64,000 nt of DNA from Eubacteriales bacterium (GTDB lineage Bacteria > Bacillota > Clostridia > Oscillospirales > CAG-272). A program made the position numbers and the translations under genes. Of this stretch, positions 11,445 through 54,857 are shown piece after piece. The stretch covers positions 1,763-65,762 of the forward strand of contig JAZOVV010000045.1 of the NCBI GenBank assembly GCA_045658925.1, written 5' to 3'. Numbering within the stretch: position 1 is the stretch's first letter; each line of letters opens with the position of its first letter. Under the pieces are notes generated by a model. The model saw only the letters and a list, made by a program, of their open reading frames with translations. It had not been told where the DNA came from and ran no database searches.

Positions 11445-12104
11445 TTATGGCTTTTTGGTTGCATAACCGTAGCTTTGGGCGTATTCCTCGGCATAGGAAC
11501 CCGATTGACAAAGAAAGGTAAGCTTGGCATTGCAGTTTTCAAAAGCACCGTACTCGATTTTGGTAACGGTTGCGGGAATTTCGACCTCACTCAATGCAAT
11601 ACATCCGCGAAAGGCGAACCAACCGATGCTCACAAGGCTTTTGGGGAAAATAACCTTTTCTATGGTTAAATTGTTTTCAAAAGCAGTATCGGCAATGTGC
11701 GTTACGGGACAACCGCCGATTTCTTTGGGGACGGAAACAACCTTCTCCTTGCCAACGTAGGCGGTTATGGTGATTTTGCCTTCCTTTGTTGTGTACTGAA
11801 AATCGGATTGCGGTGCGGCTTCGGGAACACCGAGAGCAATTTCCAACTCTTCTATGCGCGATTCATACTCTACTCTTTCGGATGCGTAAGCATCCTTGAG
11901 GGAAAGAATTTCCTTTTGTAATTCCGAAACAAGCATTTGATAATACGTCGCACGCGCTTCGGCTGCATCTAAAGCGATTTGGTCAAGTGGGTCGGATGTA
12001 TCAAGAGGTGTAGTGGGCACTTGTGGCTCTTCCCCACCGCTCCCATCCGCGCAAGAGCCAAGAAGCAGACACAAAAGCAGGCAAACAATAGTGATTTTTT
12101 TCAT
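11445..12104 (-). CDS. Lipoprotein with coiled coil and BspA-type leucine-rich repeats (LRR_5)
   Basis: Lipobox LLGSC, repeats such as IGWFAFRGC and IEYGAFENC. Start moved to the ATG after RBS AAGGAGAAGG. Confidence 0.8.
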   Translation of the reverse strand: MKKITIVCLLLCLLLGSCADGSGGEEPQVPTTPLDTSDPLDQIALDAAEARATYYQMLVSELQKEILSLKDAYASERVEYESRIEELEIALGVPEAAPQSDFQYTTKEGKITITAYVGKEKVVSVPKEIGGCPVTHIADTAFENNLTIEKVIFPKSLVSIGWFAFRGCIALSEVEIPATVTKIEYGAFENCNAKLTFLCQSGSYAEEYAQSYGYATKKP

Positions 12105-12215
12105 AATCCTTCTCCTTTGATATGGGTTGTCCTCATCATACCATACTTCTCTTGTCGAATACAAGTGAAATAGGAGACCTATAAAAAATAATATACAAAA
12201 AAAGAAAAAAAGCCC

Positions 12216-12244
12216 TTGACTTTTGGCTCACGATAAGATATAAT
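12216..12244 (+). promoter_or_regulatory. Sigma-A promoter of tRNA-Ile2
   Basis: TTGACT-17-TATAAT with an upstream A-rich UP element. Confidence 0.8.
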
Positions 12245-12257
12245 ATAAAGAGCCAAC

Positions 12258-12334
12258 GGACCATTAGCTCAGTTGGTTAGAGCCACCGGCTCATAACCGG
12301 TCGGTCCAAGGTTCGAGTCCTTGATGGTCCACCA
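12258..12334 (+). tRNA. tRNA-Ile2 (CAT anticodon, lysidine type); elongator Met less likely
   Basis: Cloverleaf GGACCAT...CTCATAA...GTTCGAG...ATGGTCC-A-CCA, closely resembling Bacillota tRNA-Ile2. CCA is encoded. Confidence 0.9.
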
Positions 12335-12508
12335 CGCAAAGCCACCCCTTTGGGTGGCTTTTTTGCGTGGTAGACCATCAAGTTTGACTCGACCTTGCTC
12401 TGCAACGCAGTTGCAGAATAAGGTTCGCATTTCAAGCAAAGCCGACGGGAGCTCGCTCACAGGCGGCGCGCGCAGAAATATTGCCCCATAGTGGCAAAGT
12501 CCTTGATG
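12335..12508. repeat. tRNA-associated structured element: terminator hairpin plus inverted and direct partial copies of the tRNA 3' half
   Basis: 12368-12397 is a near reverse complement of 12307-12334. 12420-12427 and 12498-12508 together reproduce tRNA 12308-12326 exactly. Confidence 0.75.
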
Positions 12509-12608
12509 ATGTATTTTCGCTTTTCTATTTACTTTTCCATTTTGATATGATATAATAAATTTATTAACGTATCCTTTCCAAACTAAACTTTGCCTTGGAG
12601 AAATCAAA

Positions 12609-15600
12609 ATGAAACTAAAAAATAAGATTTTATCGCTATTTTTAGCCCTTTTTATTCTTTTTGGAATGGTTCCAACAACATTCGCAAGCACTGCTTCCCA
12701 ATCGGCAATCGCTGCCGTTGATGAAGATTTTAACGGCCTGCCCATCGGTTTGGAGCCCGACGGATGGACGGTTGAACCCATTGGTCGCACCGATGCGGGC
12801 GTTAAGATTGTCGCAGCTCCAAAAAAAGCACAAGGAGATAACGCTATGCGCATTGAGGATAATTCAACTGAATATGCCAATCCCGCTCGCGTAACCAAAA
12901 CCTTTGCGTCTGCTGCTGACGTAGAGCTTTGCTTTGACTACTACCTCGAAAGTGTTTCAGGCGCGAACGCTTTGGGCATTTGCAAGGACGGTATTGCAAC
13001 CAATCAAAAAAGAGTGAACCTTGGTATCTTCCCCAACGGGGACGGCAGTGCTACACTCAAATACTACAATCCCCAAACAAAATGGGTGGCAACTGCTAAA
13101 AAAGATATGCAAAAGGAAACTTGGTATTCCTTTAAGATTGTGTCAAAAGCCAATTCCGACACGGCTGACGTTTATGTGAACGGTGAGAAGATTGGCTCGG
13201 TTTGGGCTGACCAAAGAATTGCAACTGTCGACCGCATTGTCTTTCATACCAACAACAAAGCAAGCATCAATGACGTATTTTTGATTGACAACGTTAAGGT
13301 AATTGGCCCTGCCGTTGTTAGAGATTATCCCGTAGTTGCTTGCAACAGCGGCAAATTTGGATTTACTGCTACCCTTTCTCACCTATCAAATCTTAAATTC
13401 GCTCTCCTTTCGGGCGATGCATACGGCATTTATATTGCTGCCAAAGAGGATGGCGCGCTTTGCTATCGCCGTGATAACCGTTGGATTGAATTCAGCGCCG
13501 CAGGCGCCGTTTGCACCAATCAAGAAATGAAAATCGTTGTGGATTTGCCCGAAGGACGCAACGTTGATTATGCTCGCGTATATGTGAACGGCACTTACGT
13601 TGGTATGGCAATTTACACCAACAAATGTACAAACATAACCGCTATGCGCTTTGAAACCGAGGGCGACGTACGCATAACCGACGTTTGGTCGGACACCTCG
13701 GATGGCATCATACAAATGCCTTCTCGTACGGAAAGTGCACCTACGGTATACGTTCCCGAGGTCGTTGCCTCCTCTCCCCTTTATTGCCCCCTTGATTATA
13801 ATCCTTCTACCGGCAAGATGAACACATACACCGAAGATTGCTACGTTGACACCAACAACAATAGCGTTGGTGTAGATCTTGGGTATAAGCAACCTATCAA
13901 CGCGATTCGTCTATATGATAGCGATGCGGAAGTTACTTCCCGTTCCAACCATTTCACCCTTTGGCAAAGTGATGACAACAAAAATTGGACGGAGATACGC
14001 GGTTTTCAATTTAATCGCATCACCGAAGATGGCAAATGCCAAATTCTGTTTGAGTTCTCGGGCGTGGAAGCGCGCTACGTAAAAATCAATACTACAAAAT
14101 ACGATGAAGCTGCAAGCATTTATTTAAGTGACTTGTCTGCCTGCATTCGCGCAGAGCGCCGCATCGTCCGTCAGTGGAAGATGGCAGGCACACCGATGCA
14201 AGCTTTGGATGACTCCTCCCCCACCACAACGCCTATGGAACAAGTGTTTGTGCAGAACTCTTTGACCGTTACAAAAGGTGACAGCATTGGCATTTGGTTT
14301 GGTATTCACTCCGAGGTCGAAGCGATTGCGCTTTGTGGCAAGGGTCTTGAAAATCTTGGTAAGGATGCATTTGAACTCTATTACAGTAACGATAATATCA
14401 CTTATACGAAAATTGAGAACACCACTTTGAGCCGTGGGGAAAACACTTGGAGACTGACGTTTGACAGTATGAAATGCGGTTATCTCAAACTCTATGCAGC
14501 TGACGATATGAACGTTTCTCTTTCGAGCCTTGCAGACGGTATTTCGGCGTATTCCTCGCAGGAAGTGAACACAGGTCACGTTATGCAATCGACCGACAGA
14601 GGTGCGGACGGTGACTTTTACGTAATGCCGGACGGTACACTTGTAGCATCCTATAACGGCTTTGCCTCCAAGGTTGGCACTTCGGGTGGCGGTGATGCAT
14701 CCGATTCTTCGCTGAACGCTTTTACCTCCACCGACGGCGGGTATACTTGGGGCGACGGCAAAAGCTTTTTGATTAAAAGCGAAGGCAGCCTCAACGTGCT
14801 CAATCCAACCTATATTTGGCTTGCAGGCGGCGAGTTGGGTCTTATTTACATCGAAAAAGAAGCAACGGAAATCGCTAACATTTATATTCGCCGCTCTATC
14901 GATAACGGATTGACTTGGGGAGATGCCCAACGCATTACAGATGAACCTCAAGGATATTCCATTACCTCTAGCGGACACCGTGTTCTGCGTCTTTCCACAG
15001 GTCGTATTTTATTGCCCGTTGGTTATTCCGCTACCGTAAACGATGTGTACGGCTCAGATCGTGCTATTGGATACATTTGGTACTCCGACGATGAAGGTCA
15101 CACTTGGCACCGCTCTCTCGATGCCCTCACGCTTCCCCACGCAGCACTTGAGCCCTCGGTGGCAGAACTCAAAAACGGAAATATTTTGCTTTCTTTACGT
15201 ACGCGCGAGGAACGTGTTATTTACCAATCCATTTCCACCGACGGTGGCTTGACTTGGGCACAACCCGTCAAGATTGACATTCAATCCCCTAGCGCTACCA
15301 ACACGGTTATGCGCTTGCCTGCAACGGGTGATATTGCGCTCTTTTGGAACAACGATTTTTCTGCAAGTGGCGTTGACAGACGCCCCTTGACAGTAGTTCT
15401 TACCTCTGACGACGGATTGAGTTACCACAATCTTCGCAGTTTGGTAGAGTGTGATTATCCCACTCCTTGGCCGAGCGTGGCTTTTTATGGCAGAAGCGTA
15501 TTCTTAATGCACGGAAATGAAACGCACGTTCGTGTGTTTGATATTGCAACACTGTATTATACCACATCAGGCAAGGTGACTACCAACGATTTGCCGCAAG

Positions 15601-15962
15601 CCGCTACTCCCACAGCTGTGCTCGATAAAACAAGCGGTTGGCTGACGGGTATGAGTGAAACAATGCAATATTCTCTTGACGGTGGCAAAACCTGGACTTT
15701 TGCAGGTGGTACGAGCGTGCTACTTAACCTTGACAAGATAAACGCAATGGAAATTTTGGTTAAGGATATTGGAACAAGCGCCTTTGCACCTTCCACTATC
15801 CAAAGCATTTCTCTTATTCAAGAAGGCGAATCTCCCGAACAAAACACAAAACCGACCCTCGGTGCGGGCGCAATTGCCGCAATCGTGATCGGTTCTGTGG
15901 TTGCAGTTGGAACTGCCGGTCTTATAACATTTACTTTACTCAAAAGAAAAAAGAAAATTTAA
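12609..15962 (+). CDS. Secreted, membrane-anchored multidomain Asp-box (BNR) sialidase-like glycosidase with lectin/F5-8C-like modules
   Basis: Signal peptide. Asp boxes STDGGYTW, SIDNGLTW, SDDEGHTW, STDGGLTW, SDDGLSY. Discoidin-like motifs (VDLG, SDDNKNW, ARYVK). C-terminal TM helix with basic tail. Confidence 0.75.
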   Translation: MKLKNKILSLFLALFILFGMVPTTFASTASQSAIAAVDEDFNGLPIGLEPDGWTVEPIGRTDAGVKIVAAPKKAQGDNAMRIEDNSTEYANPARVTKTFASAADVELCFDYYLESVSGANALGICKDGIATNQKRVNLGIFPNGDGSATLKYYNPQTKWVATAKKDMQKETWYSFKIVSKANSDTADVYVNGEKIGSVWADQRIATVDRIVFHTNNKASINDVFLIDNVKVIGPAVVRDYPVVACNSGKFGFTATLSHLSNLKFALLSGDAYGIYIAAKEDGALCYRRDNRWIEFSAAGAVCTNQEMKIVVDLPEGRNVDYARVYVNGTYVGMAIYTNKCTNITAMRFETEGDVRITDVWSDTSDGIIQMPSRTESAPTVYVPEVVASSPLYCPLDYNPSTGKMNTYTEDCYVDTNNNSVGVDLGYKQPINAIRLYDSDAEVTSRSNHFTLWQSDDNKNWTEIRGFQFNRITEDGKCQILFEFSGVEARYVKINTTKYDEAASIYLSDLSACIRAERRIVRQWKMAGTPMQALDDSSPTTTPMEQVFVQNSLTVTKGDSIGIWFGIHSEVEAIALCGKGLENLGKDAFELYYSNDNITYTKIENTTLSRGENTWRLTFDSMKCGYLKLYAADDMNVSLSSLADGISAYSSQEVNTGHVMQSTDRGADGDFYVMPDGTLVASYNGFASKVGTSGGGDASDSSLNAFTSTDGGYTWGDGKSFLIKSEGSLNVLNPTYIWLAGGELGLIYIEKEATEIANIYIRRSIDNGLTWGDAQRITDEPQGYSITSSGHRVLRLSTGRILLPVGYSATVNDVYGSDRAIGYIWYSDDEGHTWHRSLDALTLPHAALEPSVAELKNGNILLSLRTREERVIYQSISTDGGLTWAQPVKIDIQSPSATNTVMRLPATGDIALFWNNDFSASGVDRRPLTVVLTSDDGLSYHNLRSLVECDYPTPWPSVAFYGRSVFLMHGNETHVRVFDIATLYYTTSGKVTTNDLPQAATPTAVLDKTSGWLTGMSETMQYSLDGGKTWTFAGGTSVLLNLDKINAMEILVKDIGTSAFAPSTIQSISLIQEGESPEQNTKPTLGAGAIAAIVIGSVVAVGTAGLITFTLLKRKKKI

Positions 15963-54537: not shown

Positions 54538-54611
54538 GCAGGTGTAACTCAATGGCAGAGTGTCCGCTTCCCAAGCCGAATACGCGGGTTCGATTCCCGT
54601 CACCTGCTCCA
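54538..54611 (+). tRNA. tRNA-Gly (CCC)
   Basis: GCAGGTG/CACCTGC acceptor stem, U73, encoded CCA, anticodon loop TTCCCAA, T-loop TTCGATT. Confidence 0.92.
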
Positions 54612-54770
54612 AAAAGGAACCCCCACGCGGTTGCGTGGGGGTTCTTTTTGGCACAGTTGACGAGTTTTGAGAAACTGTGTGCGCGCATAGTGCGCCCGCG
54701 ACGAATTTGCGAAGCAAATTTGTGGCTCGATTGCAAACAATCGAGCCTTGGTTCTGATTCCCGTCACTTG
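54612..54770. repeat. tRNA-associated structured element: terminator, inverted and direct partial copies of the tRNA 3' end, hairpin array
   Basis: 54649-64 matches the reverse complement of 54596-611 at 12/16 positions. 54750-70 matches tRNA 54587-606 with one insertion and one substitution. Three perfect hairpins lie between them. Confidence 0.75.
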
Positions 54771-54857
54771 TCCTTTTAGAAAACTTCGCCTATGGGATTG
54801 CATTTTATTAAAATTTATGTTATAATAAGCACATCCTACGTAAACTTTGGAGAAAAA

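Follow-up and report, generated by a model that had tools for sequence, protein, structure and literature searches.

Gene-less, hairpin-rich modules behind tRNA genes of gut Clostridia: a repeated family that may derive from integrative elements

Phages and genomic islands classically insert at tRNA genes, and the evolution of new tRNA specificity is poorly understood. In E. coli, the tRNA-linked repeats (RtT, tyrT operon) are structured non-coding repeats that each end in the last ~19 nt of the tRNA, can stand in tandem and have no explained function. The attC sites of integrons and the attP site of CTX phage carry inverted copies of their target ~100 nt apart, which can pair to form a double-stranded likeness of it. 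Large serine recombinases use att sites of ~40-50 bp that consist of imperfect dyad half-sites with a 2-bp crossover. Within tRNA genes, a T-loop sublocation of integration was reportedly described by Williams in 2002. The available part of PMC5704250 gives the definition of CIMEs together with an accretion model, and describes tRNA-targeting IMEs as using tyrosine recombinases, and serine recombinase elements as having very short direct repeats and disrupted targets. The tycheposons of Prochlorococcus are presented in the available part of 10.1101/2020.12.28.424599 as tRNA-specific elements that adjoin one another and are divided just by partial tRNA copies, with degenerate remnants and extra partial tRNAs piling up beside the tRNA.

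The locus compared with these systems lies in a window of 64,000 nucleotides, which is the whole stretch of DNA analysed, from the genome of a bacterium of the Eubacteriales. Like the RtT repeats, as these are generally known, the module found here is a repeated non-coding unit behind a tRNA that ends in a copy of the tRNA 3′ end (11 nt in the window). Unlike RtT, it is set off from the tRNA by a terminator, also contains the tRNA end in inverted form and has a T arm that is split by a conserved core, and one core family serves many tRNAs. The RtT covariance model (RF00391, gathering score 45 bits) was absent among the 16 matches at E ≤ 10 in 11800-13000 of the window and gave no match at E ≤ 10 across the same genome, the same model being positive in the E. 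coli control. Only tRNA reached its Rfam gathering score in the window region, the window's second tRNA and five related loci.

On architecture alone, the module fits the CIME definition as it stands in the available part of PMC5704250. As in att duplications and CIMEs, the tRNA is intact, a displaced 3′ copy runs from the T loop (to CCA in clean copies), units accrete and no integrase lies inside. Unlike the CIMEs described in that part of the source, the modules measure only ~170-190 bp, which is far smaller, and they carry a covarying hairpin core common to many tRNAs and an additional inverted target copy; unlike the tRNA-targeting IMEs described there, they have recombinases of the large serine type nearby. 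Tycheposon arrays resemble the modules in placing units side by side at a tRNA with partial tRNA copies between them, whereas tycheposons, in the available part of 10.1101/2020.12.28.424599, are multi-gene elements with mostly tyrosine recombinases, and a miniature structured unit is not described in that part. The module host also differs from Prochlorococcus in phylum and habitat. The likeness to attC and CTX attP is one of working only, by analogy, as the module is without an integron integrase or filamentous-phage context and its target is a tRNA gene. Neither an account of such units nor the phrase 'tRNA-linked repeat' was met in the literature searched, a scope that lay outside subscription papers and old scans. 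The family, which consists of small, gene-less, hairpin-rich DNA behind many tRNAs of uncultured gut Clostridia, is apparently undescribed.

Anatomy of the module in the window

The copy in the window (12335-12508) is a member of a repeated family, termed type A, whose units share one order: a terminator, the reverse complement of the 3′ end of their own tRNA, a variable hairpin, a T-stem 5′ strand with TTCG, a rod-like conserved core with the tip GGGAGCTCGCTCAC, a second hairpin and a copy of the T loop, T stem and acceptor. The features of the locus, in window coordinates, are as follows.

12216..12244, + strand: putative promoter-like site of the tRNA gene, TTGACT-17-TATAAT (consensus scan, 11/12)
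12258..12334, + strand: tRNA(CAT) with encoded CCA, probably tRNA-Ile2 (ARAGORN; Rfam tRNA, 69.1 bits)
12338..12364, + strand: intrinsic-terminator-like hairpin, AAAGCCACCC / CTTT / GGGTGGCTTT and a T run (inverted repeat, 10 nt at 100%)
12365..12397, + strand: reverse complement of the tRNA's CCA, acceptor 3′ strand and T arm (repeat search, Rfam search, folding)
12399..12417, + strand: hairpin P1, 8-bp stem with cGCAg triloop, TCTGCAAC-GCA-GTTGCAGA (sequence variable among copies, stem kept)
12420..12427, + strand: copy of the T-stem 5′ strand and TTCG, AAGGTTCG (exact 8-mer repeat of 12308-12315)
12428..12480, + strand: rod-like conserved core hairpin (model R1 at 12418-12482, 85.2 bits; covariation), with the invariant tip at 12447-12460
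12481..12497, + strand: hairpin P5, TTGCC / CCATAGT / GGCAA (sequence variable among copies, stem kept)
12498..12508, + strand: copy of the T-loop 3′ part, T-stem 3′ strand and first acceptor bases, AGTCCTTGATG (exact 11-mer repeat of 12316-12326)
12528..12556, + strand: promoter-like site of the next gene, outside the module and setting its outer limit (scan 10/12, extended TG)

The first promoter-like site stops 13 nt short of the tRNA start, and the next gene (12609-15962) carries BNR_2 and F5/8 type C domains. The first-pass annotation had named the host gene tRNA-Ile2. No tool assigned that label, and ARAGORN calls the gene Met(CAT). The Ile2 identity is likely by elimination among the three CAT tRNAs of the genome, one of which is initiator-like (C1 opposite A72), and by the pairs C4-G69 and C5-G68, which we take to be TilS identity elements.

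The arms of the terminator stem are 12338-12347 and 12352-12361, and the hairpin was left unlisted by a simple terminator scan because its T run is absorbed into the stem. The inverted copy prolongs this stem, and the entire hairpin spans 12307-12397 with the terminator stem enclosed; its arms 12320-12340 and 12362-12382 are 21 nt long and 95% complementary. Joined, AAGGTTCG and AGTCCTTGATG give tRNA positions 12308-12326; the break falls between G57 and A58 of the T loop, and 70 nt lie between the two pieces. Among 2000 mononucleotide shuffles of 12335-12540, direct matches of at least 11 nt to the tRNA arose in 6, and reverse-complement matches at least as long as observed (10 nt) in 17. The fold of 12258-12520 reached -118.8 kcal/mol, compared with -80.9 ± 5.0 in shuffles, and none of the 200 shuffles was as low. 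The first-pass annotation had placed correctly, to the base, the direct copies with their T-loop break and 70-nt insert, and its antisense copy of the T arm and acceptor at 12368-12397 and its P1 hairpin with the GCA triloop are borne out as well.

In the window, the identity of the direct copy ends at 12508, four bases into the acceptor strand, and the remaining acceptor and CCA have decayed. Since this 3′ copy stops after 11 nt, the window's unit, if it was ever mobile, is a decayed one. The whole acceptor end ...CCTTGATGGTCCACCA is retained in genome G008 and a full 18-nt copy to CCA in G095; the identity block reaches the tRNA 3′ end in both of these and at the Tyr, Leu-TAG and Ser-GCT tRNAs of the window's own genome. 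No gene lies in the 174 nt that separate the tRNA from the copy, where the only frames (52-56 codons) overlap the structure, and this agrees with the earlier description of a non-coding, tRNA-linked unit. The module is filed as a gene-less derivative because no recombinase gene lies between the repeats.

The inverted copy begins precisely with TGG opposite CCA, and clean direct copies extend from about position 58 to the terminal A. Such boundaries would suit retro-copies primed by tRNA, in which the inverted copy would be the primer-binding site and the direct copy, from ~58 on, would be reverse-transcribed from mature tRNA. This explanation is rated low because RVT_1 was unmatched in the window's own genome (95.6% complete). 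The same boundaries are accounted for by the classical att model, and the units hold terminators and flanks that are foreign to a mature tRNA. An origin by retro-copying is barely credible.

A covarying core behind many tRNA genes

The type A core was modelled alone (covariance model R1) because RNAalifold on the whole module gave just 11 pairs, the variable hairpins being misaligned. R1 gave five matches in the window's own genome and matched 45 of 78 genomes of the genus and 2 of 150 other genomes of the order, and G095 places the core in another family of that order. Of 80 loci fetched from a species-wide pattern scan, 70 were confirmed by R1, all of them from gut Clostridia; the other 10 were all non-Clostridia records and are taken as chance matches because every one failed the covariance model. 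Trailing units of this kind stand behind 12 of the 36 tRNAs of the window's own genome. Sister types of the unit also exist: type B, exemplified behind tRNA-Gly at 54612-54773, and the one that follows tRNA-Ile2 in G010 and G012.

Type A copies lie on the strand of the tRNA, mostly 79-97 nt behind the gene. Among the best 30 genus loci, a same-strand tRNA was found upstream in 20 (at 79-93 nt in 18 of these), and 8 more have at most 213 nt of upstream sequence present. The species-wide set gave a same-strand tRNA upstream in 45 of 70 loci, with 11 more truncated by the contig end, and 14 copies were without a tRNA in 250-596 nt of upstream sequence. The hosts comprise at least 12 tRNA species: Ile2/Met-CAT, Gln-CTG, Gln-TTG, Glu-CTC, Glu-TTC, Gly-CCC, Ser-GGA, Ser-CGA, Ser-TGA, Cys, Val and Tyr. 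The flanks follow the host. In 20 copies behind tRNAs, the inverted piece matched the last 18 nt of the cognate tRNA at a mean of 13.8 positions, compared with 9.7 for non-cognate tRNAs, and the T-stem 5′/TTCG copy matched at 8.4 of 9 positions compared with 6.5. The split T loop is seen again behind other tRNAs, where each copy fits its own tRNA.

The copies are bound to tRNA 3′ ends and their ends vary with the tRNA, which sets them apart from dispersed repeats of the REP, BIME or MITE type, and a match to an Rfam or REP family, which the first-pass annotation had named as grounds for refuting its reading, was not found. That annotation had pictured a mini-element built from the 3′ half of its own tRNA; the flanks do copy that tRNA, and the unit is not unique to it, the same core standing behind at least 12 tRNA species. 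Its view that a plain attR scar is insufficient agrees with the antisense copy, hairpins and 70-nt insert being covarying, conserved features of a family.

Covariation was found at 16 of 19 core pairs among 74 distinct copies (12 of 21 pairs in an earlier alignment), and the invariant 14-nt tip argues for selection. These data bear on the possibility of local duplication devoid of mobility or function, by slippage, template switching at the terminator palindrome or gene conversion with a neighbouring tRNA, followed by neutral drift. Template switching at quasi-palindromes can lengthen a hairpin into flanking sequence and would yield an inverted copy beside the terminator; the variable tandem copy number and the decayed 3′ copy of the window also suit such an origin. 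However, the same core recurs, with compensatory changes, at no fewer than 12 different tRNAs and also in a second family of the order, and local duplication is unable to carry a 70-nt core between unlinked tRNA loci. This explanation is already largely contradicted by the tRNA range and the covariation of the core, and we regard it as highly improbable.

In terms of strand, G.A mismatches greatly exceeded T.C mismatches on the tRNA's strand (57 vs 2 cells), three-base loops predominated, and cGNAg loops outnumbered cTNCg loops (20 vs 3 of 56). The loop excess points to one folding strand. Folding energy showed no strand difference (-51.15 vs -51.10 kcal/mol, the + strand being better in 17 of 30), and G.U pairs were scarcer than A.C in the core (3 vs 10 cells). 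A k-turn reading of the tandem G.A pairs was ruled out, the sole one-base bulge being two pairs off, as was a T-box or leader reading, the unit sitting 3′ of a terminator and 5′ of the next promoter. The contigs of three metatranscriptome runs cover the tRNA and not 12338-12538, and assembled contigs cannot show absence.

The strand bias, together with the strong core covariation, the conserved distance and the constant position on the tRNA's strand, is what would be expected of a trailer RNA analogous to RtT, made by read-through from the tRNA promoter, folded like a tRNA with an acceptor mimic, a hairpin and an expanded T arm, and processed, with a role in tRNA maturation, in regulation or in the sequestration of factors that recognise the 3′ half of the tRNA. 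Flanks that follow the cognate tRNA are what a mimic requires, and E. coli offers a precedent in its own tRNA-linked repeats. Against such an RNA, every unit is separated from its tRNA by an intrinsic terminator, as are the units of arrays from one another, and a conserved promoter was not seen by consensus scan or copy alignment. The equal folding energy of the two strands, the rarity of G.U and the varying presence and copy number of units among related genomes are further points against it, and RtT and all other Rfam families were unmatched. The first-pass annotation had offered a special case, a trailer whose antisense segment switches between the tRNA and the downstream copy; this found no support, the antisense-AAGG pairing not being conserved in the copies read and the module lying 3′ of an intrinsic terminator. 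We consider a trailer RNA unlikely.

The same hairpins could also serve DNA. In a folded single-strand attachment site, the inverted and direct copies would pair and rebuild a duplex image of the tRNA 3′ end, which a recombinase would join to the gene as at integron attC or CTX phage attP, with the other hairpins holding the fold. Such a site accounts for both the antisense and the sense copies of the target, and in the 12307-12397 hairpin the T arm, the acceptor strand and CCA reappear in duplex form. cGNAg loops are very stable in DNA, and their enrichment on one strand and the lack of module cover in the RNA contigs, with the limit given above, would be in keeping with it. However, no single-strand replicon, rolling-circle gene or integron-type integrase is tied to the units, some clean copies (e.g., G095) have a weak inverted copy or lack it, and the nearby recombinases are of the serine type, which acts on double-stranded DNA. 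A scan of viral contigs for GGTTCG-N20-24-GGGAGCTCGCTCAC, a pattern that misses the Ile2 subtype (gap of 19 nt), gave a single match, put down to chance as it lies within a 462-codon frame and the GC-rich contig around it lacks a tRNA. A folded site of this kind is quite improbable.

Signs of mobility and nearby recombinases

Filled and empty sites occur behind tRNA-Ile2. In G019, this tRNA is followed by a ~190-nt unit bounded by GAGTCCTTGATGGTCCACCA, and in G010 and G012 the sequence found downstream of the unit in G019 starts right after CCA, which makes these loci empty for that sister unit. Type A stands behind tRNA-Ile2 in 7 of the best 30 genus loci, and several relatives carry other sequence there. 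At the Tyr, Leu-TAG and Ala tRNAs of the window's own genome, the direct copy ends at or beside CCA, and behind it stands a second terminator that differs from the first; likewise, G095 shows a perfect 18-nt repeat to CCA and two different terminators. The original terminators have thus been displaced past the direct copy, which is counted as a sign of mobility. Tandem arrays were found at tRNA-Ala of the window's own genome and in G006, G018 and G007, and a contig of a public DNA run joins 12507 to 12334, which fits a tandem copy and a circle equally. The number of units differs, and their presence changes, among related genomes. The comparison of relatives suggested in the first-pass annotation yielded both filled and empty sites and a covarying core.

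The 3′ flanks of large serine recombinase genes, whose domains were confirmed, repeat this architecture in 10 of 18 readable cases, with a pseudo tRNA 3′ end, a terminator, an inverted piece, hairpins and a T-loop-like copy. Genes for large serine recombinases of the G008 or G056 type themselves end in GTTCGRAT-N15-CACCA. A type A copy stands behind a large serine recombinase gene in G008 and L127, and in G023 a convergent recombinase gene follows tRNA-Ile2, while the module with a 26-nt tRNA fragment lies on a separate contig. The first-pass annotation had allowed that the region might be the unconserved scar of an integrase-bearing island; recombinase-bearing elements do occur at tRNA-Ile2 in G023 and G008, and the module is conserved rather than such a scar. 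The tie of the module to large serine recombinases is one of adjacency only. A serine recombinase adjoins type A in only two cases (1 of 30 genus loci and 1 of 70 species-wide loci), no genome-level association was seen (type A in 14 of 23 genomes with a serine recombinase and in 24 of 38 without), and no one-contig element with attL, recombinase and attR of the window's type was found. Tyrosine recombinases occur in 59 of 61 genomes, with a tRNA at 4 of the best 30 loci (Val three times, Thr once). Repeats of 18-26 nt would be unusual for serine recombinases because the direct repeats reported for them in the available part of PMC5704250 are very short.

A possible integrative origin and its implications

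Taken together, the family, its tie to tRNA genes, the cognate flanks, the insertion signatures, the arrays and the architecture beside recombinase genes form the basis for reading the modules, which measure ~170-180 bp and follow single tRNA genes in a genus of uncultured gut Clostridia, as gene-less derivatives of elements whose integration sites lie in the segment from T loop to CCA of tRNA genes. We give this reading about an even chance. That their form is one of non-autonomous remains, or of a miniature version, of site-specific integrative elements is judged to be just as evenly balanced. The element would bring a substitute tRNA 3′ part followed by its own terminator, and integration would leave the tRNA intact on the attL side. 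The original 3′ part would be moved to the far end, on the attR side, which in the window would be AGTCCTTGATG at 12498. The arm of the element beside the crossover would consist of the hairpins and the conserved core, whose closing stem copies the T stem. Once the gene-bearing interior was lost, the terminator would directly adjoin this arm, and tandem arrays could result from repeated integration or unequal crossing-over. The units would accordingly owe their origin to recombination in the T loop; the acting recombinase would be of the large serine or the tyrosine type, and the core may serve as a protein-binding site or as a folded-strand site.

Further points count against the integrative reading. 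The presence of one core at many tRNAs, each time with flanks specific to the tRNA, needs many co-adapted lineages or gene conversion, and we know of nothing about att arms that demands a covarying core, P1 or P5. In addition, a module kept at the same tRNA across species fits the vertical inheritance of a functional part too.

A wider reading, which is doubtful, is that the modules are miniature mobile elements of a new class whose targets are tRNA genes generally. One structured core would move between tRNAs and at each gain a sense and an antisense copy from T arm to CCA, possibly in the form of a folded single strand resembling the duplex of the target, and the recombinases of the genus, including large serine ones with tRNA-tail-like 3′ ends, would use it as a portable attachment cassette.

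The conserved core with its tRNA-copying flanks looks like such a portable cassette in many states: single, tandem, decayed and beside a recombinase. If the link to recombinases is true, some serine recombinases would have tRNA genes as their natural targets, together with long rebuilt repeats, a combination uncommon in this enzyme family. Assemblies of gut Clostridia are interrupted at tRNA loci by these units, which could also be mistaken for pseudo-tRNAs or island scars. Should the units work as RNA instead, Clostridia would have in them a widespread equivalent of the E. coli tRNA-linked repeats, whose function is unexplained.

The tRNA(CAT) gene and its trailing module

The tRNA gene with anticodon CAT is followed directly by a terminator and by inverted and direct copies of its own 3′ half. 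The following features were located on this segment.

12258-12334, + strand: tRNA, anticodon CAT (ARAGORN, Rfam)
12338-12347 / 12352-12361, + strand: terminator stem (repeat finder)
12307-12397, + strand: whole hairpin including the terminator and the antisense copy (Rfam search, folding)

The first-pass annotation had described a mini-element built from the 3′ half of the tRNA and split in the T-loop, with an additional antisense copy, and a repeat finder recovered all of these pieces. The direct copy consists of AAGGTTCG (at 12308, repeated at 12420) and AGTCCTTGATG (at 12316, repeated at 12498), which together equal tRNA 12308-12326, broken between G57 and A58 and set 70 nt apart. The antisense copy is a 21-nt inverted repeat (12320-12340 / 12362-12382, 95% complementary) that lengthens the terminator stem. 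The hairpin P1, which with P5 forms the variable hairpins on either side of a conserved core, is present at 12399-12417, as had been noted. Folding of 12258-12520, which had been proposed as a check, gave a value 7.6 standard deviations below its shuffles. A direct tRNA match of at least 11 nt occurred in 6 of 2000 shuffles and a reverse-complement match of the observed length in 17 of 2000; the direct copies, the antisense copy and the fold all exceed chance.

Three CAT tRNAs are present in the own genome and one of them is initiator-like; the one at 12258-12334 carries C4-G69 and C5-G68, TilS identity elements, and is likely to be tRNA-Ile2. Over 30 nt, the promoter-like region of the tRNA (12216-12245) agrees at 73% with that of the next gene (12528-12557; repeat D1). 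The flanking genes are unrelated to the module; one (11445-12164, - strand) encodes a BspA-type leucine-rich-repeat lipoprotein-like product, and the other (12609-15962, + strand) a secreted product of 1117 residues with BNR/sialidase-like and F5/8 type C domains.

A family of units with cognate flanks and a covarying core

When the own genome and 40 relatives were searched, the segment 12417-12507 was found again elsewhere, often close to contig ends. The aligned copies, here called type A, begin with a variable P1, 2-5 bases, GG and T(T/C/G)CG, continue with a long irregular stem that has the invariant tip GGGAGCTCGCTCAC, and end with a variable P5, A-rich bases and the complement of the bases preceding TTCG. 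They trail different tRNA genes on the same strand (CAT, Gln-TTG, Glu-CTC, Gln-CTG, Gly-CCC and Ser-GGA by ARAGORN). The order was identical at each locus read: the tRNA, the terminator, and the reverse complement of its own CCA and acceptor strand, often taking in the T arm too; then P1, the T-stem 5′ strand with TTCG, the core and P5; and finally the T-loop 3′ bases, the T-stem 3′ strand and a partial acceptor strand of the same tRNA.

A covariance model of the core only (R1), built from alignment A2 of 19 copies, found 5 places in the own genome, one of them weak: behind tRNA-CAT, behind tRNA-Ser-GGA, at the start of contig C4, which continues the end of the tRNA-Gln-TTG contig C19, and on contigs C34 and C60. 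It matched in 45 of 78 genomes of the genus and in 2 of 150 in the rest of the order. A strict motif scan of species-representative genomes gave at least 120 stretches, and R1 confirmed 70 of the 80 fetched. The confirmed loci all carry labels such as Clostridia, Eubacteriales or Oscillospiraceae, and none of the 10 fetched from other phyla passed. A same-strand upstream tRNA was present at 20 of the 30 best genus loci and absent at 2, while 8 more have no more than 213 nt of upstream sequence; the distance was 79-93 nt at 18 of the 20, and 249 and 320 nt at the other two. Among the 70 species-wide loci, 45 had such a tRNA, 11 ran into a contig end and 14 had none within 250-596 nt upstream. 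Some type A copies trail the end of a protein gene instead of a tRNA (G000:C34:999-1119; loci L140, L146 and L175); after this gene end come the conserved words GGCATCTTTTTTGTCAA and a terminator.

The flanks of the module track the cognate tRNA. For 20 copies behind tRNAs, the reverse complement of the last 18 nt matched the cognate tRNA at a mean of 13.8/18 (9.7 for other tRNAs), the T-stem 5′ strand with four loop bases at 8.4/9 (6.5), and the 12-nt 3′ part at 8.95 (6.7). Compensating changes preserve the core. In A2, both sides change at 12 of 21 pairs, and 78.7% of cells pair, compared with 70.1% in shuffles (none of 500 equal) and 27-48% with a slid partner. In 74 distinct species-wide copies, an alignment fitted to R1 that hence leans towards the model, both sides change at 16 of 19 core pairs and 82.8% of core cells pair, compared with 68.5% in shuffles (0/500 equal). 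At loci L154 and L164, a tRNA-like 3′ part with a long variable-arm-like stretch (...cttgaaaaccgtttgg..ccaaa.gcca + GGGGGTTCGAATCCC...CCA) lies upstream of the core and received no ARAGORN call; in L164 it is fused straight to the type A core. The copied tRNA part can therefore extend upstream of the T arm.

Folding strand and turnover of the units

Folding energy did not differ between the two strands (-51.15 and -51.10 kcal/mol; in 17 of 30 the + strand was the better). Core G.U cells were rarer than A.C cells (3 vs 10), mismatches on the tRNA strand were G.A/A.G in 57 cells and T.C in 2, and the majority of the P1/P5 loops (n = 56) had three bases, including 20 cGNAg and 3 cTNCg. Because the G.A/A.G and cGNAg excesses mark the strand of the tRNA, our data suggest that a single strand folds, as RNA or as single-stranded DNA. 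If as DNA, the unit could serve as a folded single-strand attachment site, which we hold to be rather improbable. If as RNA, it could be a read-through trailer like the E. coli tRNA-linked repeats, which are the nearest described thing and share the plan of type A units. This is an unlikely reading, as a terminator stands before each unit, including those within arrays, no conserved promoter was seen and no Rfam family matched; RtT, the Rfam model of those repeats, had no match near the window's module or in the own genome. RNA contigs covered the tRNA alone, which counts neither for nor against transcription of the module. A retro-copy, made back from RNA, is scarcely credible.

At tRNA-Tyr, Leu-TAG and Ala of the own genome, the direct copy stops at or beside CCA, and beyond it stands a second terminator unlike the first, as expected if inserted DNA pushed away the original 3′ end and its terminator. 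The comparison with relatives that had been recommended for tRNA-Ile2 did yield an empty site: genome G019 has a ~190-nt sister unit between 20-nt repeats, and G010 and G012 carry its downstream sequence straight after CCA. The tRNA-Gln of genome G095, a member of another family in the order, is trailed by a type A unit, with a perfect 18-nt repeat reaching CCA and two different terminators. Tandem units were found in G006, G018, G007 and at the own-genome tRNA-Ala, and arrays of the core only in G006 and G010. Purely local duplication, with the copies arising in place, is judged quite improbable. The public DNA run X4 contains a 209-nt contig in which 12507 leads through AATAA back into 12334; its depth is roughly half that of the contig crossing 12507/12508 normally. 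Contigs with the window's arrangement are present beside it. The junction fits a tandem copy of the window's unit, or less probably a circular form, in a natural population.

Type A or sister units trail 12 of the 36 tRNAs of the own genome. The window holds one such sister unit.

54538-54611: tRNA-Gly-CCC, the window's second tRNA
to 54773: type B unit trailing it, with a terminator, an inverted-like piece, three hairpins and CCTTGGTTCTGATTCCCGTCACTTGTCC

CCTTGGTTCTGATTCCCGTCACTTGTCC (54746-54773) copies the T arm and acceptor strand of this tRNA with one extra T-loop base, and the unit had no Rfam match. Many tRNA terminators of the genus are a palindrome, ..AATCCGAAC / GTTCGGATT.., made of a T-loop-like word and its complement (L014, L015, L016, L030; G000:C9 after tRNA-Glu-TTC).

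Recombinase genes and the proposed origin of the units

In genome G008, a type A copy with the complete end ...CCTTGATGGTCCACCA lies immediately downstream of a gene whose product has Recombinase and zinc-ribbon domains, those of large serine recombinases. Relatives of this gene were found in 23 of 61 genus genomes, and 18 of the 20 best loci had readable 3′ flanks. The coding end carries GTTCGRAT-15 bases-CACCA, a 28-nt tRNA-tail-like motif with a terminator next, in 14 of the 18. Ten of the 18 flanks show the module plan with the recombinase gene end replacing the tRNA: past the terminator come an inverted piece, then hairpins, then a T-loop-like copy of the 3′ part of a tRNA. The Ser codon of the motif is always TCG and its Pro codons always CCA (L030 1190-1230, - strand; L046-L064), and this invariance suggests a constraint at the DNA level. 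The motif exceeds tRNA T54-A76 by 5 nt; attP half-sites of large serine recombinases exceed attB half-sites by ~5 bp. In several of these frames the terminator comes before any stop codon. A third unit type begins with gcggcaagttgccgc... directly after the tRNA-Ile2 CCA (L018, L021, L022) or after the direct copy (L020, L030), and ends with GGTTCGGAT, 15 bases, CCACCA and a terminator, which is the 28-nt motif without the gene.

Of 18 larger stretches, 8 contained a tRNA. Four recombinase genes are convergent directly on a tRNA (Lys twice, Ser-GGA, Ser-GCT), and one in G023 likewise on tRNA-Ile2; a sister module and a 26-nt tRNA-Ile2 fragment on another G023 contig appear placed as an attR would be. 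A single contig of G015 carries tRNA-Asn and, after ~4.9 kb of genes, the recombinase gene with a module and a 3′ copy of tRNA-Asn (G015:C19; L058, L069). The only close serine recombinase gene of the own genome, at a contig start (G000:C33; L050), is followed by a module and a tRNA-Asn-like 3′ copy with a ~25-nt insert in the T arm; G015 matches this arrangement and adds the intact tRNA-Asn ~4.9 kb upstream, a tRNA not assembled in the own genome. Several points limit the link to recombinases. Type A lies behind a large serine recombinase gene at 2 loci only (G008, L127), and it is as frequent in genomes with the recombinase (14 of 23) as in those without (24 of 38). Tyrosine recombinases adjoining tRNA-Val are also present in the genus. 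Published serine-recombinase elements are reported to carry very short repeats and to disrupt the sites they target (PMC5704250).

After the E. coli repeats, the systems closest to type A units are att duplications and gene-less, cis-mobilizable elements (PMC5704250), and element arrays separated by partial tRNAs are also close (10.1101/2020.12.28.424599). As these sources describe them, none combines a small unit, one covarying core common to units at many tRNAs, a T arm that is split and an additional inverted copy, and no description of units of this plan was found in open-access text.

We give about even chances to the reading that elements recombining within the T-loop-to-CCA segment of tRNA genes gave rise to the window's unit as a derivative without genes. 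The data show the family, its tie to tRNAs, the cognate flanks, the covariation and the turnover; that recombination took place, which enzyme acts and what the core does are what we infer. On this reading, the element would have brought the present 3′ part of the tRNA and the terminator, the arm adjoining the crossover would consist of the hairpins and core, and AGTCCTTGATG at 12498 would be the remnant of the displaced original 3′ end.
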